Source: a virus
Lineage: Duplodnaviria; Heunggongvirae; Uroviricota; Caudoviricetes
Reading direction: 5' to 3' (one strand)
Virus record (IMG/VR): IMGVR_UViG_2698536308_000013
Length of the DNA stretch: 42,478 bases
Shown: in pieces, positions 5,109 to 39,693 of the stretch
Layout: each line of letters starts with the position of its first letter
Position numbering within the stretch: the stretch's first letter is position 1
Program-made: the position numbers and the translations under genes
The notes under the pieces: generated by a model
What the model saw: the letters and a program-made list of their open reading frames with translations, nothing else
Told to the model about the DNA's origin: nothing
Databases searched by the model: none

Positions 5109-6071
5109 TCAACTAATCGCCTCAGCACTGGCTTTTGCGATCACGGCAGCCGGGGAATTTTTTTTTCTGGTTATCGTAGGTGCTTCATCTGCTGCGGTAA
5201 TGCTCAATTGAACCTGGATAATGTCGCTATTACCCCCATCAGGCCATTCACCTGACACCTGAACCTTCGGGAAACTGAAAGTGTATGCCCCCTCTCCATT
5301 CGAAAGCGTGAAGCTGAACGGAACTGTTTCTCCAGTCAGTGTTTTACTCCAGATTTCCCACGCGGCTTTAGACCATGAAAGCGTCACCGTACCGGACGGT
5401 GTAAAAGTAGTCGGAATATTTGCTCCTGCATAAGGCGAGCCAGTCCCGATACAACGCTGTGTCTGGAGTTTGTTATCGAACTGAATATCAAAACTGTCGA
5501 TACAAAAACCGTTACCTCCGGCAACACCATTCAGGCTTACTGCTGAAACCTCCTTAAACGAATAACGTAGCTTTCCTGCACTATCCACAGGTTCGCCTTT
5601 GATAAAATTCGTATCATCGGCCTTTGATTCCCAGTCCAGTCCGGCAAAGGTTACGGTCGCTGTAATATCGCCGTCGTTAGGGATCTGCATTTTCCATGAG
5701 CCAACCTGCGCTCCTCTGACGACAGAGGCAATTCCGACATCGGACGCATAGGTCGCCAGAGAAAATGTTATTCGCTCATTCCCCATTGTCAGAGAATCGC
5801 CTGACCATTCCGCGCCGAAACAGGATGCAAGAAAATCATCATGTTGACCCCAGCGAAATTTGGTACCAACATCACCGCCGACATCCACAGTGCCAGGCGT
5901 CGCCCCCTGAGCCATCCGGGAGCCACCAATCTCATTATTTTCGCCTTTATTCTGGGTGGGTTTTACTCCCCAGCTTGTGCGTTTTAATAAACTCCAGTCA
6001 CCACTTGCTGGCGTAGTGCCTGCAACCGTCTCCCGGATAAATGCCGAGATAACCTTTGCACCTGAACTCAC
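5109..6071 (-). CDS. Major tail tube protein (gpV-like) with C-terminal Ig-like domain
   Basis: 320 aa, Ser/Thr/Gly-rich beta-type composition, position immediately upstream of the G/GT chaperones. Confidence 0.7.
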   Translation of the reverse strand: MSSGAKVISAFIRETVAGTTPASGDWSLLKRTSWGVKPTQNKGENNEIGGSRMAQGATPGTVDVGGDVGTKFRWGQHDDFLASCFGAEWSGDSLTMGNERITFSLATYASDVGIASVVRGAQVGSWKMQIPNDGDITATVTFAGLDWESKADDTNFIKGEPVDSAGKLRYSFKEVSAVSLNGVAGGNGFCIDSFDIQFDNKLQTQRCIGTGSPYAGANIPTTFTPSGTVTLSWSKAAWEIWSKTLTGETVPFSFTLSNGEGAYTFSFPKVQVSGEWPDGGNSDIIQVQLSITAADEAPTITRKKNSPAAVIAKASAEAIS

Positions 6072-12480: not shown

Positions 12481-13791
12481 TTAAATCCGAAGTGATGTGA
12501 CTCTTCCGGTCGGTTTGACAATAGGGAATTGCTTAACGATGAAATAACCTCCGGCATCATTCGGGTGATCATTGCCAGATTTTTTATCAGGCTCCCCCTT
12601 CTCATCCCAGACCTGTTGCTCCAGAGATTCGGCATATAACGGGCAACGCTTCACATTAACTTTATAGCGACGCTCACCATTGGCATTGCAGAACATTGCA
12701 TTCATTGAGTTAACGCGATCTTTTACTGGCGGGTTCGAGCTGTTCACCACAACGTTAAAACCAGCCTGCTTAAGCTGGGCTATATCCGTCGTACTTGCGT
12801 TACTTGATTTTCTGGAATCCCCGGAAGCATCTGGATAAATATAAATTTCCCTCACTTTCCGGTAATCATTCCCATCATACAGCCAGAAGCGTTCTTTAAT
12901 GATGCGGATCATATCCGGCGTATCGTAGGCATTGATGATTTCAGTTACCGCACATGGAAGCCCCAAACGCAGCACATGGACGATTCCCGCCATCTTTCCA
13001 ACGTTAAAATCCATCCCAATATAAATCGGCTCCCCTGGCTGCTCCACTTCTTCGCAATTATTCAGTTTCCGGTCAAACTGATGGTAAACAGTACCACTTG
13101 TCAGGTTAGTAAACTGTCCTCGAAGATAGGCTTTAATCAGCTCTGGAGGGTATGATTCAAGAAGCGAAGGAATGTAATCTGCTGGCAGGTTCTTTTCATT
13201 ATCGAAAGTAGATGCCTGCACCAGACCATACAGTGAGGCCAGCTCTGTTTTTTCACGCACGGCTTTAACAAACTGCTCGTAGACAAATTTGAATCCTTCC
13301 GGCGTGGTTGTAACGTCAATACCGTTGCGAAGTCCATCAATCTTATAACGCATACGTGCAATTATCTTGCGCCACGCCGTTCTGGCTTTTTCCTTCGGCA
13401 AAATGTCCAGTTCATCCACCAACGCATTACCAATTTTGAAACCGACGATCGTTTGTGGCTTCTCCATCGATCTGCAGATAGTGGTTCCCCGATACTGGCG
13501 TCCGTAATAAAAGTGAACCTCTTTATTTCCCTCATTAATTTTTACGTTCAATCCCCAGTCAGCAGCAACTTCTTCCACTGTAGGGTAAAAAATATCGCGA
13601 ATTTGGGGATACGTTGGCGCAAAATATCCCTGATTTATACCTGGATGCTCCCAAATCCCCTTGCATATGCCGCCACACCCAACCCATGTTTTGCCCGAGC
13701 CAAAACCAGCAATATAGGCTTTAAATTTATGGGGCATTGAAAGAAATCGCGCCTGAGGCACATTAAGCGTCGGAGAGATCATCTTCATCAC
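12481..13791 (-). CDS. Terminase large subunit
   Basis: 436 aa with an N-terminal Walker-A-like GFGSGKT motif and an acidic C-terminal nuclease-type region; followed by portal. Confidence 0.85.
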   Translation of the reverse strand: MMKMISPTLNVPQARFLSMPHKFKAYIAGFGSGKTWVGCGGICKGIWEHPGINQGYFAPTYPQIRDIFYPTVEEVAADWGLNVKINEGNKEVHFYYGRQYRGTTICRSMEKPQTIVGFKIGNALVDELDILPKEKARTAWRKIIARMRYKIDGLRNGIDVTTTPEGFKFVYEQFVKAVREKTELASLYGLVQASTFDNEKNLPADYIPSLLESYPPELIKAYLRGQFTNLTSGTVYHQFDRKLNNCEEVEQPGEPIYIGMDFNVGKMAGIVHVLRLGLPCAVTEIINAYDTPDMIRIIKERFWLYDGNDYRKVREIYIYPDASGDSRKSSNASTTDIAQLKQAGFNVVVNSSNPPVKDRVNSMNAMFCNANGERRYKVNVKRCPLYAESLEQQVWDEKGEPDKKSGNDHPNDAGGYFIVKQFPIVKPTGRVTSLRI

Positions 13792-18958: not shown

Positions 18959-19487
18959 TGTTGCCCCCACAAACAGACTTCACGCTCAATCTCACGACGA
19001 GTCATNNNNNNNNNNNNNNNNNNNNNNNNNNNNNNNNNNNNNNNCCTTTCCATTGCTTACCGCCAGCATATGTCCAGCGACGTAGCTGGTCACATGCGCC
19101 TTTGATATCGCCCTGGTTTATTTTGCGAAGAAGCGTCGATGTTCTGAAATTGCCAGCACCCACGTTGTAGACGAACGAGTACAGAGCGCCGCGCGTTGTT
19201 TCCGGTATATCGACTTTGATGTACGGGTTAATTTGTCTGGCAACCGTGGCAAGGTCTTTATTCAAGAGTGTTTTGCATTCTGCTTTGGTATACGTTTTAC
19301 CGAGCATGATGTCTTTTCCTGTATGCCCGTGACATACAGTCCATACACCAACAATATCTTTGTATGGTATGTAGCTGACACCTTCCAGGCCATCGTCACC
19401 ACTTGGGCCAGTGATTAACACTGATGCTATAGCAATTGCTCCGCCACCAATAGCAGCAGCAACGACTTTTCGTAATGATGGAGGCAT
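18957..19487 (-). CDS. SAR-type endolysin (phage 21 R-like lysozyme), interrupted by an N-gap
   Basis: N-terminal signal-anchor-release-like hydrophobic, Gly/Ala-rich segment ([18 protein letters not shown]); stop overlaps the Rz start; exact 3' portion unreadable because of N-run. Confidence 0.65.
19006..19044. other. Assembly gap, 39 N
   Basis: Run of N in the sequence. Confidence 1.
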
Positions 19488-29320: not shown

Positions 29321-29720
29321 TTACCCCCTGAAGCCTGGCGGGATCGCACTATCCGGTAACGAGACGGTGTTAACCTGTCGGAGTAACGTCTCAGGTCGAA
29401 CACCTTTCGGCGCGAACAAGCCCTGGTATTCATTGGCGATGCTGTGTCGAATCACCTGCTCAGGTGAAAAACCCTGCTGGCGGAATTTTTCCAGCTCCCG
29501 TATCGCCCCGTTAGCGCCCTGCTCCGTTCGAATCGGTTTTCGCAATGCCTGGCGAAATTCAACCCACTCACGCCAAAGCGAGACAGAAATCCAGTTCGGC
29601 AAAGCAATATCCAGAGGGTCAAACTTTTTGACACCTCGATTCCCCCGGGGGGGATTTAGGGGGGGATCTGTTTTTAGATCTTTATCTGTATCTTTATTAG
29701 TTGCCTTTGTGTTGACATCA
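29321..29720 (-). CDS. C-terminal fragment of an O-like replication initiator (ydaU-type), cut at its 5' side by an N-gap
   Basis: Nearly identical (2 mismatches in first 80 nt) to the 3' end of the ydaU-like gene at 32696..33090; the gap begins exactly where identity would end. Confidence 0.6.
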
Positions 29721-29731
29721 NNNNNNNNNNN
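29721..29731. other. Assembly gap, 11 N
   Basis: Run of N in the sequence. Confidence 1.
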
Positions 29732-29979
29732 ACTCTCGAGAGTTTTTTGCGGGCGCTTTGCCAGTCCTTGCGAGCCTGTTCAGACGGGAATAAGCCGTAG
29801 CCAGAATTATATACATCACCACTTGCGACCAGTTCTATGCATAAGCGACCGACAGACGCACGACTGATACCTGTTTCATCTGACAACTGCCGAATCGTGA
29901 CCCGACCGTCCTGATGCACGAGTTCCACAATTCGCGTCTTCAGTTCTTCCCGCTGTTCGGGAGTAAAAGGTTTCGCCAT
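29732..29979 (-). CDS. Partial paralogue of the 27352..27783 gene (N-terminal HTH part), 3' end lost in the gap
   Basis: MAKPFTPEQREELKTRIVELVHQDGRVTIRQLSDETGISRASV...; about 85 percent nucleotide similarity to copy 1. Confidence 0.5.
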
Positions 29980-29993
29980 AAATCCTCCTGAAA

Positions 29994-30740
29994 CTACTTA
30001 ACAACCCTCGAATGGCTAACATTCGGACGCCAGCTCTCCCAGTTAAAATTCACCCAGCGCCCGCCGTTCATGACCATGCGATCCATCACCCGCTCGCCGA
30101 GCAATGTTTTCATCACCTCATAGTTCAGGTTTGTCAGCATCCCCACGCTGCGCATCGACGCTGTCCGGCGATCAACAATCTGGTGCAGCACCACCTGCTC
30201 GTTTTTCGTCTCGCGCTGAATGCCAATTTCATCAAGAACCAGCAGATCCACTTCGCACAGCTCCCGCAAAAATTTTTCGCCTGACTGCCCGTCGTCATAG
30301 CTGGCGTGCAGGGCGCTCATAACATCAGCCACGGTAACCACAATCACTGTCTGACCGTCTTTCAGCAGGCGATTCCCGATAGCTGCCGCTAAGTGATTCT
30401 TCCCGGTACCAGGTTTTCCGCTGAACGCAAAATTTGTACACCCGGTCATCAGTTCATCGGCGATGGATTTCGCCTGGCTTAACGCGTATCGCTGGCCGTC
30501 GTTCTGCACCTGGTAATTCGCAAACGAGCATTTACGGTGCAACGGCTGGATGCCTGAGCGATTCAGAATTTTTTCCACCCGCAACTGGCGATTCAGGCGG
30601 TTGATCTCCTCGCTACGTTTCTGGCCTTCAGCAAGTTGCCACTCGCGCCACTCCGCTACCGTTCTGAATGGGGCGGTTACATGTGGCGGGGTCAGTCGGC
30701 GGATGCGTTCCAGAACGCCGCCTGTCGCAATATTTTTCAT
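29994..30740 (-). CDS. ydaV: DnaC-like helicase loader (YdaV-like), copy 2
   Basis: 248 aa, about 95 percent identical to copy 1 with the same Walker motifs. Confidence 0.85.
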   Translation of the reverse strand: MKNIATGGVLERIRRLTPPHVTAPFRTVAEWREWQLAEGQKRSEEINRLNRQLRVEKILNRSGIQPLHRKCSFANYQVQNDGQRYALSQAKSIADELMTGCTNFAFSGKPGTGKNHLAAAIGNRLLKDGQTVIVVTVADVMSALHASYDDGQSGEKFLRELCEVDLLVLDEIGIQRETKNEQVVLHQIVDRRTASMRSVGMLTNLNYEVMKTLLGERVMDRMVMNGGRWVNFNWESWRPNVSHSRVVK

Positions 30741-30746
30741 GGTCCG

Positions 30747-31423
30747 TTACCCCCTGAAGCCTGGCGGGATCGCACTGTCCGGCAACGAGACGGTGTTAAC
30801 CTGTCGGAGCAACGTCTCAGGCCGAACACCTTTCGGCGCGAACAGGCCCTGGTATTCATTGGCGATGCTGTGTCGAATCACCTGCTCAGGTGAAAAACCC
30901 TGCTGGCGGAATTTTTCCAGCTCCCGTATCGCCCCGTTAGCGCCCTGCTCCGTTCGAATCGGTTTTCGCAATGCCTGTCTGAACCGGACCCACTCATGCC
31001 AGAGTGTTTCCGGCAACCAATCGGGCAGCTCAATAGCCTCCGGCTCGAATTTTTTAGACGCTCGTTTTTGGCGAGGGGGAGATCAGTATTTAGATCTTCC
31101 TCTTCCTCTTCCTCTGGTAACGCTTTTTGATCCGTTTGTGTAACGCTGGCAGCGTTACCTTTTCGTTTCAGTTCGCGTATTTTTGTTACTCGCTCGTTTG
31201 TAACCGCCCGTTTTTTTTAGAGCTTTTTCCGTTATGACGTTCAAAGTTAGGTAGAGAAAGCCCTCCGTCATTTTCGACCAGCCATCCAACCTGAATTAAC
31301 GCATCAGCAAAACCAGACATAAAAGTGATGCGATCTATTGCACTTTTTGTAACGCCGCGAGCGTTACAATCTGCATTACCGTCTATCATTTGTTGATCCG
31401 CCCATGCCCAGAAGCGAATAACC
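30747..31423 (-). pseudogene. O-like replication initiator with a different N-terminal domain, 5' end truncated by the IS, probable frame disruption
   Basis: C-terminal 89 aa match the other O-like copies; upstream part (31186..31423) is in another frame; a T8 homopolymer and a CTCTTC x3 repeat lie in between. Confidence 0.5.
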
Positions 31424-31487
31424 TGAGGTAGCCTGAGTTTAACGGACACTCCTTCCTGAAATAGAATGGCATCAGAAGGAGCTAATA

Positions 31488-31790
31488 ATGAGCAGAAAAA
31501 CCCAACGTTACTCTAAAGAGTTCAAAGCCGAAGCTGTCAGAACGGTTCCTGAAAATCAACTTTCGATCAGTGAAGGCGCTTCCCGATTATCTCTTCCTGA
31601 AGGCACTTTAGGACAATGGGTTACCGCCGCCAGAAAAGGGCTCGGTACTCCTGGTTCCCGCACGGTGGCTGAACTGGAATCTGAAATTCTGCAACTGCGT
31701 AAGGCGTTAAATGAAGCTCGCCTTGAGCGAGATATATTAAAAAAAGCAACAGCGTATTTTGCACAGGAGTCGCTGAAAAATACGCGTTAA
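31488..31790 (+). CDS. IS3-family transposase OrfA (HTH)
   Basis: 100 aa ending ...LERDILKKATAYFAQESLKNTR, typical IS3 OrfA leucine-zipper C-terminus. Confidence 0.85.
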   Translation: MSRKTQRYSKEFKAEAVRTVPENQLSISEGASRLSLPEGTLGQWVTAARKGLGTPGSRTVAELESEILQLRKALNEARLERDILKKATAYFAQESLKNTR

Positions 31791-31825
31791 TCGAACAATG
31801 GCGACAACAATTTCCCATTGAAGCG

Positions 31826-32644
31826 ATGTGTCAGGTATTTGGTGTATCCAGGAGCGGTTATTACAACTGGGTACAGCATGAACCCTCAGACAGAAAACAA
31901 AGTGATGAGCGGCTAAAACTGGAGATTAAGGTGGCACATATCCGCACTCGCGAAACATATGGAACCCGGCGGCTCCAGACGGAGCTGGCAGAGAATGGCA
32001 TCATCGTTGGTCGTGACCGACTGGCACGTCTTCGTAAGGAGCTAAGGCTACGCTGTAAGCAGAAACGCAAGTTCAGAGCGACTACGAACTCGAACCACAA
32101 TCTGCCAGTTGCGCCAAATCTGCTGAACCAGACGTTCGCTCCTACAGCACCAAATCAGGTCTGGGTGGCGGACCTGACGTATGTTGCCACACAGGAGGGA
32201 TGGTTGTACCTCGCTGGCATCAAAGATGTTTATACGTGCGAAATTGTCGGCTACGCCATGGGAGAGCGCATGACAAAAGAGCTGACAGGTAAAGCCCTGT
32301 TTATGGCGCTCAGGAGCCAGCGCCCACCTGCCGGGCTAATCCACCACTCTGATCGAGGTTCACAGTACTGCGCATACGATTACCGGGTCATACAGGAGCA
32401 GTCTGGTCTGAAAACATCAATGTCGCGTAAAGGTAACTGTTACGACAACGCTCCGATGGAAAGCTTCTGGGGAACGCTGAAAAATGAGAGCCTGAGCCAC
32501 TATCGTTTTAATAACCGGGATGAAGCCATCTCAGTAATACGGGAATACATTGAGATTTTCTACAATCGTCAGCGTCGTCACTCTCGTCTGGGGAATATCT
32601 CCCCGGCAGCCTTCAGGGAAAAATATCATCAGATGGCTGCTTAA
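31826..32644 (+). CDS. IS3-family transposase OrfB (DDE catalytic domain); frame opens upstream and is normally fused to OrfA by -1 frameshift
   Basis: Contains …VWVADLTYV… and …HSDRGSQY…, consistent with an IS3-family DDE integrase core. Confidence 0.85.
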   Translation: MCQVFGVSRSGYYNWVQHEPSDRKQSDERLKLEIKVAHIRTRETYGTRRLQTELAENGIIVGRDRLARLRKELRLRCKQKRKFRATTNSNHNLPVAPNLLNQTFAPTAPNQVWVADLTYVATQEGWLYLAGIKDVYTCEIVGYAMGERMTKELTGKALFMALRSQRPPAGLIHHSDRGSQYCAYDYRVIQEQSGLKTSMSRKGNCYDNAPMESFWGTLKNESLSHYRFNNRDEAISVIREYIEIFYNRQRRHSRLGNISPAAFREKYHQMAA

Positions 32645-32688
32645 AAAAAGAACAAATGGTAGTGTCCGCTATTGCCAGTACACCTCAN

Positions 32689-32695
32689 NNNNNNC
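32689..32695. other. Assembly gap, 7 N
   Basis: Run of N immediately after the IS right end. Confidence 1.
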
Positions 32696-33547
32696 CCTGA
32701 AGCCTGGCGGGATCGCACTGTCCGGCAACGAGACGGTGTTAACCTGTCGGAGTAACGTCTCAGGTCGAACACCTTTCGGCGCGAACAAGCCCTGGTATTC
32801 ATTGGCGATGCTGTGTCGAATCACCTGCTCAGGTGAAAAACCCTGCTGGCGGAATTTTTCCAGCTCCCGTATCGCCCCGTTAGCGCCCTGCTCCGTTCGA
32901 ATCGGTTTTCGCAATGCCTGGCGAAATTCAACCCACTCACGCCAAAGCGAGACAGAAATCCAGTTCGGCAAAGCAATATCCAGAGGGTCAAACTTTTTGA
33001 CACCTCGATTCCCCCGGGGGGGATTTAGGGGGGGATCTGTTTTTAGATCTTTATCTGTATCTTTATTAGTTGCCTTTGTGTTGACATCATGTTCAAACAC
33101 CACTTCAACATCTGTTTGAACACCTGTTAAATTTCTCTCTTGTTTTGTTTGAACATCTGCTTCCTTTCTGCTTCTTCTGGCCTGAACAGATGCTTTTCCT
33201 GCGGCTGATTTTTTGGTTAATTTTTCCCTGACTGATGCCAGATCTTCCTCAATCCGAAGATGCACCCATTCCTCGCCGTTATCGCAAAAAAACTCCTGCA
33301 AGGATGGTTCAACATCAGCCCATCGCTCGTTAGTCAGACGGGCAATTTTTGCCAGCCTGTTTTTAGGTATTGGCTTTCCTGTTTGCCAGTAATTGAACAT
33401 CAGCAACAAATACGCACCATGCTCCTCTGCTGACAAATGCATGGTGTCAGCCAGGTAATCAGCTATGTACAGTTGCATGTATGGTAATGCGGCCATAATT
33501 GCCCCGTATGATGCTGCCCGGTGGCTTAGAATAAGCACAAACAGCAT
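32696..33547 (-). CDS. ydaU: O-like replication initiator (YdaU-like, DUF1376-type N-terminus), 3' end abuts the N-gap
   Basis: N-terminus MQLYIADYLADTMHLSAEEHGAYLLLMFNYWQTGKPIP fits the DUF1376 pattern; C-terminal block shared with the other two copies; likely start near 33496. Confidence 0.65.
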
Positions 33548-37092: not shown

Positions 37093-39693
37093 ATGAGCAC
37101 AAAACCACTCTTCCTGTTACGGAAAGCGAAAAAATCATCCGGTGAACCTGACGTCGTCCTGTGGGCAAGCAACGATTTTGAATCGACCTGTGCCACTCTG
37201 GACTACCTGATCGTTAAGTCAGGTAAAAAACTGAGCAGCTATTTTAAAGCTGTTGCCACGAATTTTCCTGTCGTTAATGACCTGCCCGCTGAAGGTGAGA
37301 TCGATTTTACCTGGAGTGAACGCTATCAACTCAGCAAAGACTCCATGACATGGGAACTAAAACCGGGAGCAGCACCAGACAACGCTCACTATCAAGGCAA
37401 TACCAACGTCAACGGCGAAGACATGACTGAGATTGAGGAGAATATGCTACTCCCAATTTCTGGCCAGGAACTGCCCATTCGTTGGCTTGCTCAACACGGC
37501 AGCGAAAAACCGGTAACGCACGTTTCACGCGACGGACTCCAGGCATTACACATTGCTCGGGCTGAAGAACTACCGGCTGTTACTGCCCTGGCTGTTTCCC
37601 ACAAAACCAGCCTGCTCGACCCGCTGGAAATTCGCGAACTCCACAAACTGGTTCGTGACACTGACAAAGTTTTCCCTAATCCTGGTAATTCAAACCTGGG
37701 ACTGATAACTGCTTTTTTCGAAGCATACCTGAACGCTGACTACACCGATCGAGGACTGCTGACAAAAGAGTGGATGAAGGGTAATCGTGTTTCACACATC
37801 ACTCGCACGGCTTCCGGTGCTAATGCTGGCGGCGGAAACCTCACCGATCGCGGCGAAGGTTTCGTACACGATCTGACGTCACTGGCGCGGGACGTAGCCA
37901 CTGGCGTACTGGCCCGTTCAATGGATCTGGACATCTATAACCTTCATCCGGCACACGCTAAACGCATTGAGGAAATTATCGCTGAAAATAAACCGCCCTT
38001 TTCTGTTTTCCGCGACAAATTCATCACCATGCCTGGCGGGCTGGATTATTCCCGCGCCATCGTGGTTGCGTCCGTAAAAGAAGCACCAATTGGGATCGAG
38101 GTCATCCCCGCGCACGTCACTGAATATCTGAACAAAGTACTGACTGAAACCGATCATGCCAACCCTGATCCGGAAATCGTGGATATTGCCTGCGGTCGCT
38201 CCTCTGCCCCGATGCCGCAGCGAGTAACAGAAGAAGGAAAACAGGATGATGAAGAAAAACCGCAACCATCTGGAACAACGGCAGTTGAACAGGGAGAGGC
38301 TGAAACAATGGAACCGGACGCAACTGAACATCATCAGGACACGCAGCCGCTGGATGCTCAGTCACAGGTAAATTCTGTTGATGCGAAATATCAGGAACTG
38401 CGGGCAGAACTCCATGAAGCCCGGAAAAACATTCCATCAAAAAATCCTGTCGATGCCGATAAATTGCTTGCTGCATCACGTGGTGAATTTGTTGACGGAA
38501 TTAGCGACCCGAACGATCCGAAATGGGTAAAGGGGATCCAGACTCGCGATTGTGTGTACCAGAACCAGCCAGAAACGGAAAAAACCAGCCCGGATATGAA
38601 TCAACCTGAGCCAGTAGTGCAACAGGAACCGGAAATAGCCTGCAATGCCTGCGGCCAGACTGGCGGGGATAACTGCCCTGACTGTGGTGCGGTGATGGGC
38701 GACGCAACATACCAGGAAACATTCGATGAAGAGAGTCAGGTTGAAGCTAAGGAAAATGATCCGGAGGAAATGGAAGGCGCTGAACATCCGCACAATGAGA
38801 ATGCTGGCAGCGATCCGCATCGCGATTGCAGTGATGAAACTGGCGAAGTCGCAGATCCCGTAATCGTAGAAGACATAGAGCCAGGTATTTATTACGGAAT
38901 TTCGAATGAGAATTACCACGCGGGTCCCGGTGTCAGTAAGTCTCAGCTCGATGACATTGCTGATACTCCGGCACTGTATTTGTGGCGTAAAAATGCCCCC
39001 GTGGACACCACAAAGACAAAAACGCTCGATTTAGGAACCGCTTTCCACTGCCGGGTACTTGAGCCGGAAGAATTCAGTAACCGCTTTATCGTAGCACCTG
39101 AATTTAACCGCCGGACAAACTCCGGAAAAGAAGAAGAGAAAGCGTTTCTGAGGGAATGCGCAAGCACAGGAAAAACGGTTATCACTGCCGAAGAAGGCCG
39201 GAAAATTGAACTCATGTATCAGAGCGTTATGGCTTTGCCGCTGGGGCAATGGCTTGTTGAAAGCGCCGGACACGCTGAATCATCAATTTACTGGGAAGAT
39301 CCTGAAACAGCAATTTTGTGTCGGTGCCGTCCGGACAAAATTATCCCTGAATTTCACTGGATCATGGACGTGAAAACTACGGCGGATATTCAACGATTCA
39401 AAACCGCTTATTACGACTACCGCTATCACGTTCAGGATGCATTCTACAGTGACGGTTATGAAGCACAGTTTGGAGTGCAGCCAACTTTCGTTTTTCTGGT
39501 TGCCAGCACAACTATTGAATGCGGACGTTATCCGGTTGAAATTTTCATGATGGGCGAAGAAGCAAAACTGGCAGGTCAGCTGGAATATCACCGCAATCTG
39601 CGAACCCTGGCTGACTGCCTCAATACCGATGAATGGCCAGCTATTAAGACGTTATCACTGCCCCGCTGGGCTAAGGAATATGCAAATGACTAA
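37093..39693 (+). CDS. recE: Exodeoxyribonuclease VIII RecE, full length 866 aa
   Basis: Size matches K-12 RecE; acidic linker; C-terminal nuclease domain; translationally coupled to recT (ATGACTAA overlap). Confidence 0.9.

Follow-up and report, generated by a model that had tools for sequence, protein, structure and literature searches.

The window, the whole 42,478-nt stretch of viral DNA analysed here, is a scaffold interrupted by three runs of N (19006–19044, 29721–29731 and 32688–32694), and the insertion sequence (IS) studied lies on a contig of 2956 bp (29732–32687) bounded by an 11-N gap on its left (29721–29731) and a 7-N gap on its right (32688–32694). This contig carries the 5′ portion of a DUF977 gene that runs off the contig end (29732–29979, minus strand; Pfam DUF977, E = 1.7e-18; corresponding to L001:3826–4248, L numbers being used for the public loci compared), an intact ydaV gene for a DnaC-like helicase loader (29994–30740, minus strand; NCBIfam PRK12377, 510 bits, and DnaC, 306 bits; Pfam IstB_IS21), the 3′ 677 nt of a pseudogene of a YdaU-family, O-like replication initiator (30747–31423, minus strand) and a complete IS600 element of the IS3 family (31424–32687, plus strand; 1264 bp). 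The ydaV gene lies downstream of the ydaU pseudogene, its start (30740) being 6 nt from the pseudogene stop codon (30747–30749), and the gene order cI/cro/ydaT/ydaU/ydaV, as for an initiator of the early-right operon, is found in L001, L004 and L012. The left flank of the element (29732–31423) is up to 99.0% identical to E. coli chromosomes, the matching features there being ydaV, the 262-aa initiator and DUF977. Beyond the right-hand gap, outside the IS locus, the next contig starts with the 3′ end (32695–33089, minus strand) of an intact DUF1376-type O gene, which extends to 33547 and belongs to a Rac-type prophage. The remaining gap (19006–19044, 39 N) falls among the lysis genes of the Rac-type prophage, with flanks matching L004 near 12668–12673.

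The element at 31424–32687 has 99.8% identity over its full 1264 bp to features annotated as ‘IS3-like element IS600 family transposase’ in 1614 E. coli genomes. Its ends, TGAGGT at 31424 and ACCTCA at 32687, are those originally read, while the length first given for this IS3-family element, 1265 bp, was one base too long. The terminal inverted repeats are imperfect (left, 31424–31451; right, 32660–32687, the last base directly abutting the N-gap), with 20 of the 30 outermost positions matching when the left end is compared with the reverse complement of the right. Two overlapping reading frames are present on the plus strand: orfA (31488–31790; 100 aa; HTH_Tnp_1, Pfam PF01527, E = 2.2e-19) and, in the −1 frame relative to it, orfB (31727–32644; ATG at 31826), which encodes a DDE transposase (Pfam rve, E = 8.7e-26; NCBIfam transpos_IS3, 334 bits against a cut-off of 160). 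The predicted A7G programmed −1 frameshift motif is indeed located within the orfA/orfB overlap (31739–31746, plus strand; TT-A AAA AAA G in the orfA frame), and slippage by −1 at this site yields an OrfAB fusion of 385 aa, as long as the product annotated in closed genomes. Length (within the 1.2–1.5 kb or so of the family), TG...CA ends, overlapping frames with a slippery site, the HTH and rve domains and, in relatives, a 3-bp target duplication all agree with the definition of the IS3 family, and the element is an IS600 that is complete, bears no sign of inactivity and is apparently functional.

IS600 is inserted in the orientation opposite to ydaU. The intact homologue is a gene of 789 nt encoding 262 aa (L001:5016–5804, L002:3729–4517, L004:5206–5994), and the remnant in the window aligns with nucleotides 105–789 of it, so the gene is cut after nucleotide 104, with the element lying after codon 35. 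The gene had been described as truncated with its 5′ part abutting the element; the truncation is real, but the window retains the 3′ 87% and lacks the 5′ 104 nt, which were absent from the entire window in a search allowing three mismatches. Alignment to the intact genes also supports the earlier observation that the remnant is out of frame and contains a T8 run: the coding strand has A8 (T8 on the plus strand; 31211–31218) where the intact homologues have A6, a +2 frameshift. An additional lesion, absent from the original prediction, is the loss of 10 bp (TCCCCCTAAA) flanked by TCCCCCT direct repeats (31074–31081, at about 31080/31081, minus strand). The A-run and the deletion together give a net change of −8 and the frame is never restored. 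The window copy of ydaU, 99% identical at the DNA level to the intact homologue, is thus broken by three lesions (IS600 after nucleotide 104, the +2 homopolymer and the −10 deletion) and has no intact reading frame. An open reading frame of 87 codons spans the junction (31186–31449, minus strand), with a GTG start inside the left end of IS600; it enters ydaU in frame from codon 36 onward and stops past the A8 shift. It has been called as a gene in some assemblies and is probably a by-product of the junction rather than a gene.

The intact 262-aa protein matches phrog_2509 (‘replication initiation protein’) over residues 1–262 (E = 1.2e-89) and, partially, phrog_678 (‘replication initiation O-like’; residues 77–236), with no Pfam family at E ≤ 0.01 and hence neither DUF1376 (PF07120), the domain of the K-12 YdaU type, nor a lambda O-type N-terminal model. 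One record of this 262-aa type, WP_001737256.1, was named ‘phage replication initiator YdaU family protein’ by PGAP; the protein is a ‘hypothetical protein’ in the matching E. coli chromosomes, and its homologue in phage records is ‘DNA replication protein O’. The O-like label is one of position and function, given the PHROG assignment as a replication initiation protein and the location of the gene upstream of a DnaC-like loader. The neighbouring O-like gene (32695–33547) does match DUF1376 (Pfam, 2.7e-26), and BLASTP aligned the two proteins only over their C-terminal 123 residues (81% identity), with no homology detected by BLASTP between the N-terminal domains, in keeping with the original observation that the N-terminal domain of the disrupted initiator differs from that of the DUF1376-type copy. 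Neither O-like protein was assigned to a family by NCBIfam, the one match being that of a tail to DnaT, below threshold. The last 93 residues (residues 170–262 of L004:5206–5994; window 30747–31016, minus strand) resemble the DnaT C-terminal domain (2ru8_A, E = 9.5e-5; 9zbt_D, E = 3.2e-4), and this DnaT-like domain is common to both O-like types; the resemblance explains the label ‘primosomal protein I’ that phage records use. The YdaU-type gene also contains two GTAACGC-N5-GCGTTAC palindromes, 207 bp apart (window ~31141–31159 and ~31349–31369; L004:5573–5591 and 5366–5384), with related GTTAC/GTAAC half-sites and the A8 frameshift located between them. By analogy with lambdoid O genes, these palindromes are candidate origin or iteron boxes.

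The original prediction considered the target-site duplication unreadable, and this holds for the window, in which the right flank of IS600 is N (32688–32694) and only the left copy is present (ACC, which is GGT on the gene strand, at 31421–31423), the right copy lying outside it. The duplication could be read instead in relatives, on closed chromosomes and large contigs retrieved by exact look-ups of the YdaV protein and of the 87-aa junction ORF, so that the distribution described here is that visible through protein identity. The same junction with both flanks readable was found at ten loci in public assemblies (L003, L007, L009–L013, L015, L016 and L018), six of which are closed S. sonnei-type chromosomes. 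All ten read ...GGGAAGGT|IS600|GGTTATTCGC..., with GGT on both sides of the element, while the five unoccupied sites (L001, L002, L004, L005 and L008) read GGGAAGGTTATTCGC with a single GGT. Judged from these flanks, the pattern at the ten loci is that of a simple transposition that duplicated the 3-bp target GGT, which bears out the claim that an IS3-family element was inserted into an O-like initiator gene. Beyond IS600, the relatives carry the missing 5′ end of ydaU, followed by ydaT, cro and the cI-like repressor gene.

In total, 13 loci from independent assemblies, closed chromosomes included, share an identical ydaU/IS600 junction, and 481 blocks of the public collection include the 87-aa junction ORF. 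Among the strains compared are S. sonnei 53G (HE616528.1, L008), which lacks the insertion, and S. sonnei FDAARGOS_90 (CP014099, L012; PMC5447701), which carries it. The exact 31-nt junction had no match among GTDB species representatives, a set of one genome per species that carries little weight here, and a 271-nt junction probe searched by megablast against 5,426 complete E. coli RefSeq genomes, apparently exclusive of Shigella, matched no record over at least 80% of its length, and the insertion is thus absent from that collection. Many public S. sonnei assemblies share the insertion, which is an ordinary one for IS600. At two further loci (L006, 2978–4056, and L014), the far flank of IS600 is a truncated IS911-like element (its OrfA beginning MKKRNFSAEFKRES...) rather than the 5′ end of ydaU, which indicates, on the sequence of these flanks, a deletion or rearrangement at this IS600; a simple insertion therefore cannot be assumed for the strain of the window.

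The initiator had been considered probably inactivated by the element. That the gene is broken is clear, but the IS is not the likely cause, since two IS-free genomes, L005 and L008 (53G), carry the 10-bp deletion together with an expanded A-run (A8 and A9, respectively). The A9 of 53G, against A8 in the other Shigella loci and A6 in the intact genes, may reflect further slippage or homopolymer sequencing error. As both small lesions exist at sites without the element, IS600 would have landed in an existing pseudogene; this order is the most parsimonious reading of two IS-free genomes, whose A-runs differ (A8/A9) and in which homopolymer length may be subject to sequencing error. The reverse order, implied by the original prediction, in which IS600 inactivated a working initiator and the frameshift and deletion accrued later, draws on the fact that a split after codon 35 would by itself abolish the full-length product. 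Nevertheless, L005 and L008 have an empty site with a single GGT and yet share both the expanded A-run and the very same 10-bp deletion, and the reverse order would need either precise excision of the IS, an uncommon event among IS3-family elements, or two separate origins of one deletion; we regard it as distinctly unlikely.

The position of the IS-bearing contig within the scaffold was assessed by comparing its flanks. The stretches on either side of it (29326–29720 and 32695–33089) are the same 395 nt with two differences, and both map to L023:4595–4989, within one continuous gene of a closed genome. L023 matches window positions 37683–32695 and 29720–23569 at 99.9% identity, the two matches overlapping by exactly 395 nt; this overlap and the contiguity in L023 make the two large contigs neighbours in one Rac-type prophage. 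This prophage includes a recE-like gene (866-aa product with Exonuc_VIII matches), sieB, kilR, ydaT, the 285-aa DUF1376 O gene, ydaV, DUF1627 and DUF977. According to these alignments, the DUF1376-type O gene is single and intact and belongs to a Rac-type prophage distinct from the remnant with IS600. The apparently duplicated modules of the window (two ydaV genes and three O 3′ ends) probably arise because short-read contigs were scaffolded across prophage repeats, and to conclude from this window that one prophage has two initiators would be wrong. One further arrangement, in which the 7-N gap hides a true join between the IS and the stop codon of the O gene, was rejected as unlikely given the 395-nt overlap of the flanking contigs. 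A further closed genome, L020 (CP074921.1; 2875–4570), has a different IS3-family element (404-aa transposase) splitting the DUF1376-type O gene of its Rac-type prophage and leaving a 159-aa stump, which is an independent insertion into the paralogous initiator gene.

We infer that the misplacement was caused by a scaffolder confused by shared repeats, and two other readings of the arrangement were considered. Were the order in the window real, the replication module of the remnant would have entered the Rac-type prophage by recombination, either at IS600 or at the shared O/ydaV repeats, and the tandem ydaV copies and duplicated O 3′ ends would be its outcome. The scaffold itself has this order, a draft assembly (L017, CXFB01) also sets the contig within the replication module of the same prophage, and L006 and L014 demonstrate that the far side of this IS600 does rearrange. 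However, L017 places the contig elsewhere in that module, across a 1-N gap, as would be expected of scaffolding confused by repeats, and both joins in the window are N-gaps. The flanks of the interpolated contig are moreover the one sequence that is continuous in L023, and its copies differ at only two positions, both within sequence that the interpolated contig also has. Finally, eight closed or near-closed loci (L003, L007, L009–L012 and two chromosome-scale contigs among L015, L016 and L018) carry the locus in a separate remnant, and a real order is accordingly very unlikely. That the element and the O-like gene are adjacent merely through an assembly chimera at a repeat, with no insertion at all, would fit the location of the IS at a contig end, IS copies being classic assembly break points, but the left junction lies well within a contig and recurs identically at the 13 independently assembled loci, ten of them with the target duplication, leaving such a chimera with a negligible probability.

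In closed S. sonnei genomes, the remnant is a segment of ~9 kb comprising DUF1391, cI, cro, ydaT, the ydaU pseudogene with IS600, ydaV, DUF977, queH, hokD and rem, and no structural genes were found in it. At its far end lies a second IS600, oriented like the first, which cuts a DUF1367 gene short and adjoins an integrase fragment (L003, L006, L007 and L009–L012). This second copy is about 4.4 kb from the first, and the one in FDAARGOS_90 (L012:9698 to about 10962) is 100% identical to the IS600 of the window. As the disrupted gene lies outside the surrounding prophage, in this short remnant, testing the replication of that prophage is moot for the IS600 locus.

Taken together, the locus very probably represents an IS600 in an already dead ydaU of a separate small lambdoid remnant, on a contig misplaced in a Rac-type prophage. 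In the history that we propose, ydaU would first have become a pseudogene through slippage of the A-run (A6 to A8/A9) and a deletion mediated by the repeats flanking the 10 bp. IS600 would then have transposed into codon 35/36 of the gene, in a small lambdoid remnant of the S. sonnei kind, generating the 3-bp GGT duplication as a neutral, later event in an ongoing IS-driven decay of the prophage. Repeats shared between replication modules would have led the scaffolder to set 29732–32687 inside a different, more complete Rac-type prophage. For the right end of the element, which the window lacks beyond its last base, a simple insertion would predict ACCTCA followed by ACC (GGT on the gene strand) and TTCCCTAATGCGGC..., and then the 104-nt 5′ end of ydaU; we infer that the strain of the window has the same far flank as its relatives.

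It is unlikely that in this strain the far end of IS600 joins DNA of another kind, as it does in L006 and L014, or even the Rac-type prophage as drawn in the scaffold. If it did, two lambdoid replication modules would have been rearranged with each other through IS600. Separately, the absence of the insertion from the lineage II strain 53G and its presence in FDAARGOS_90 and others could make it a presence/absence marker of S. sonnei sublineages. Under the preferred reading of an insertion into a gene that was already dead, its biological weight is small, being that of one more IS600 in a prophage remnant that is not inducible.

Comparison with known systems places each component of the locus. 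The element shares its length, ends, ORF layout, A7G motif, 385-aa OrfAB and 3-bp duplication with the IS3-group element IS600 of Shigella sonnei and E. coli, from which it has no substantive difference, and represents one further copy at a particular site. Relative to phage lambda O, the disrupted gene has an analogous position upstream of a helicase-loader gene, a presumed analogous role and the partial match to phrog_678, whereas its product lacks any Pfam match and has a DnaT-like C-terminus, and its partner is a DnaC-like AAA+ loader rather than lambda P. The ydaU-ydaV module of Rac-type prophages (E. coli K-12 Rac; Rac MN652886; vB_EcoS-666R9) has the order cI/cro/ydaT/initiator/ydaV/DUF977 and the C-terminal DnaT-like domain in common with the locus, and the phage records Rac MN652886 and vB_EcoS-666R9 (‘DNA replication protein O’) have 93.5–93.8% DNA identity over 83% of the flank. 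The disrupted gene differs from that module in being of the 262-aa type, with an N-terminal domain lacking a Pfam model where the Rac-type copy of the window is of the DUF1376 type, and in having been reduced to a pseudogene by three lesions. Pseudogene formation and prophage decay driven by IS elements are well described in Shigella, and the remnant shares with them multiple IS copies, truncated genes, an integrase fragment and the lineage-specific presence or absence of single IS insertions, of which this locus is an instance.
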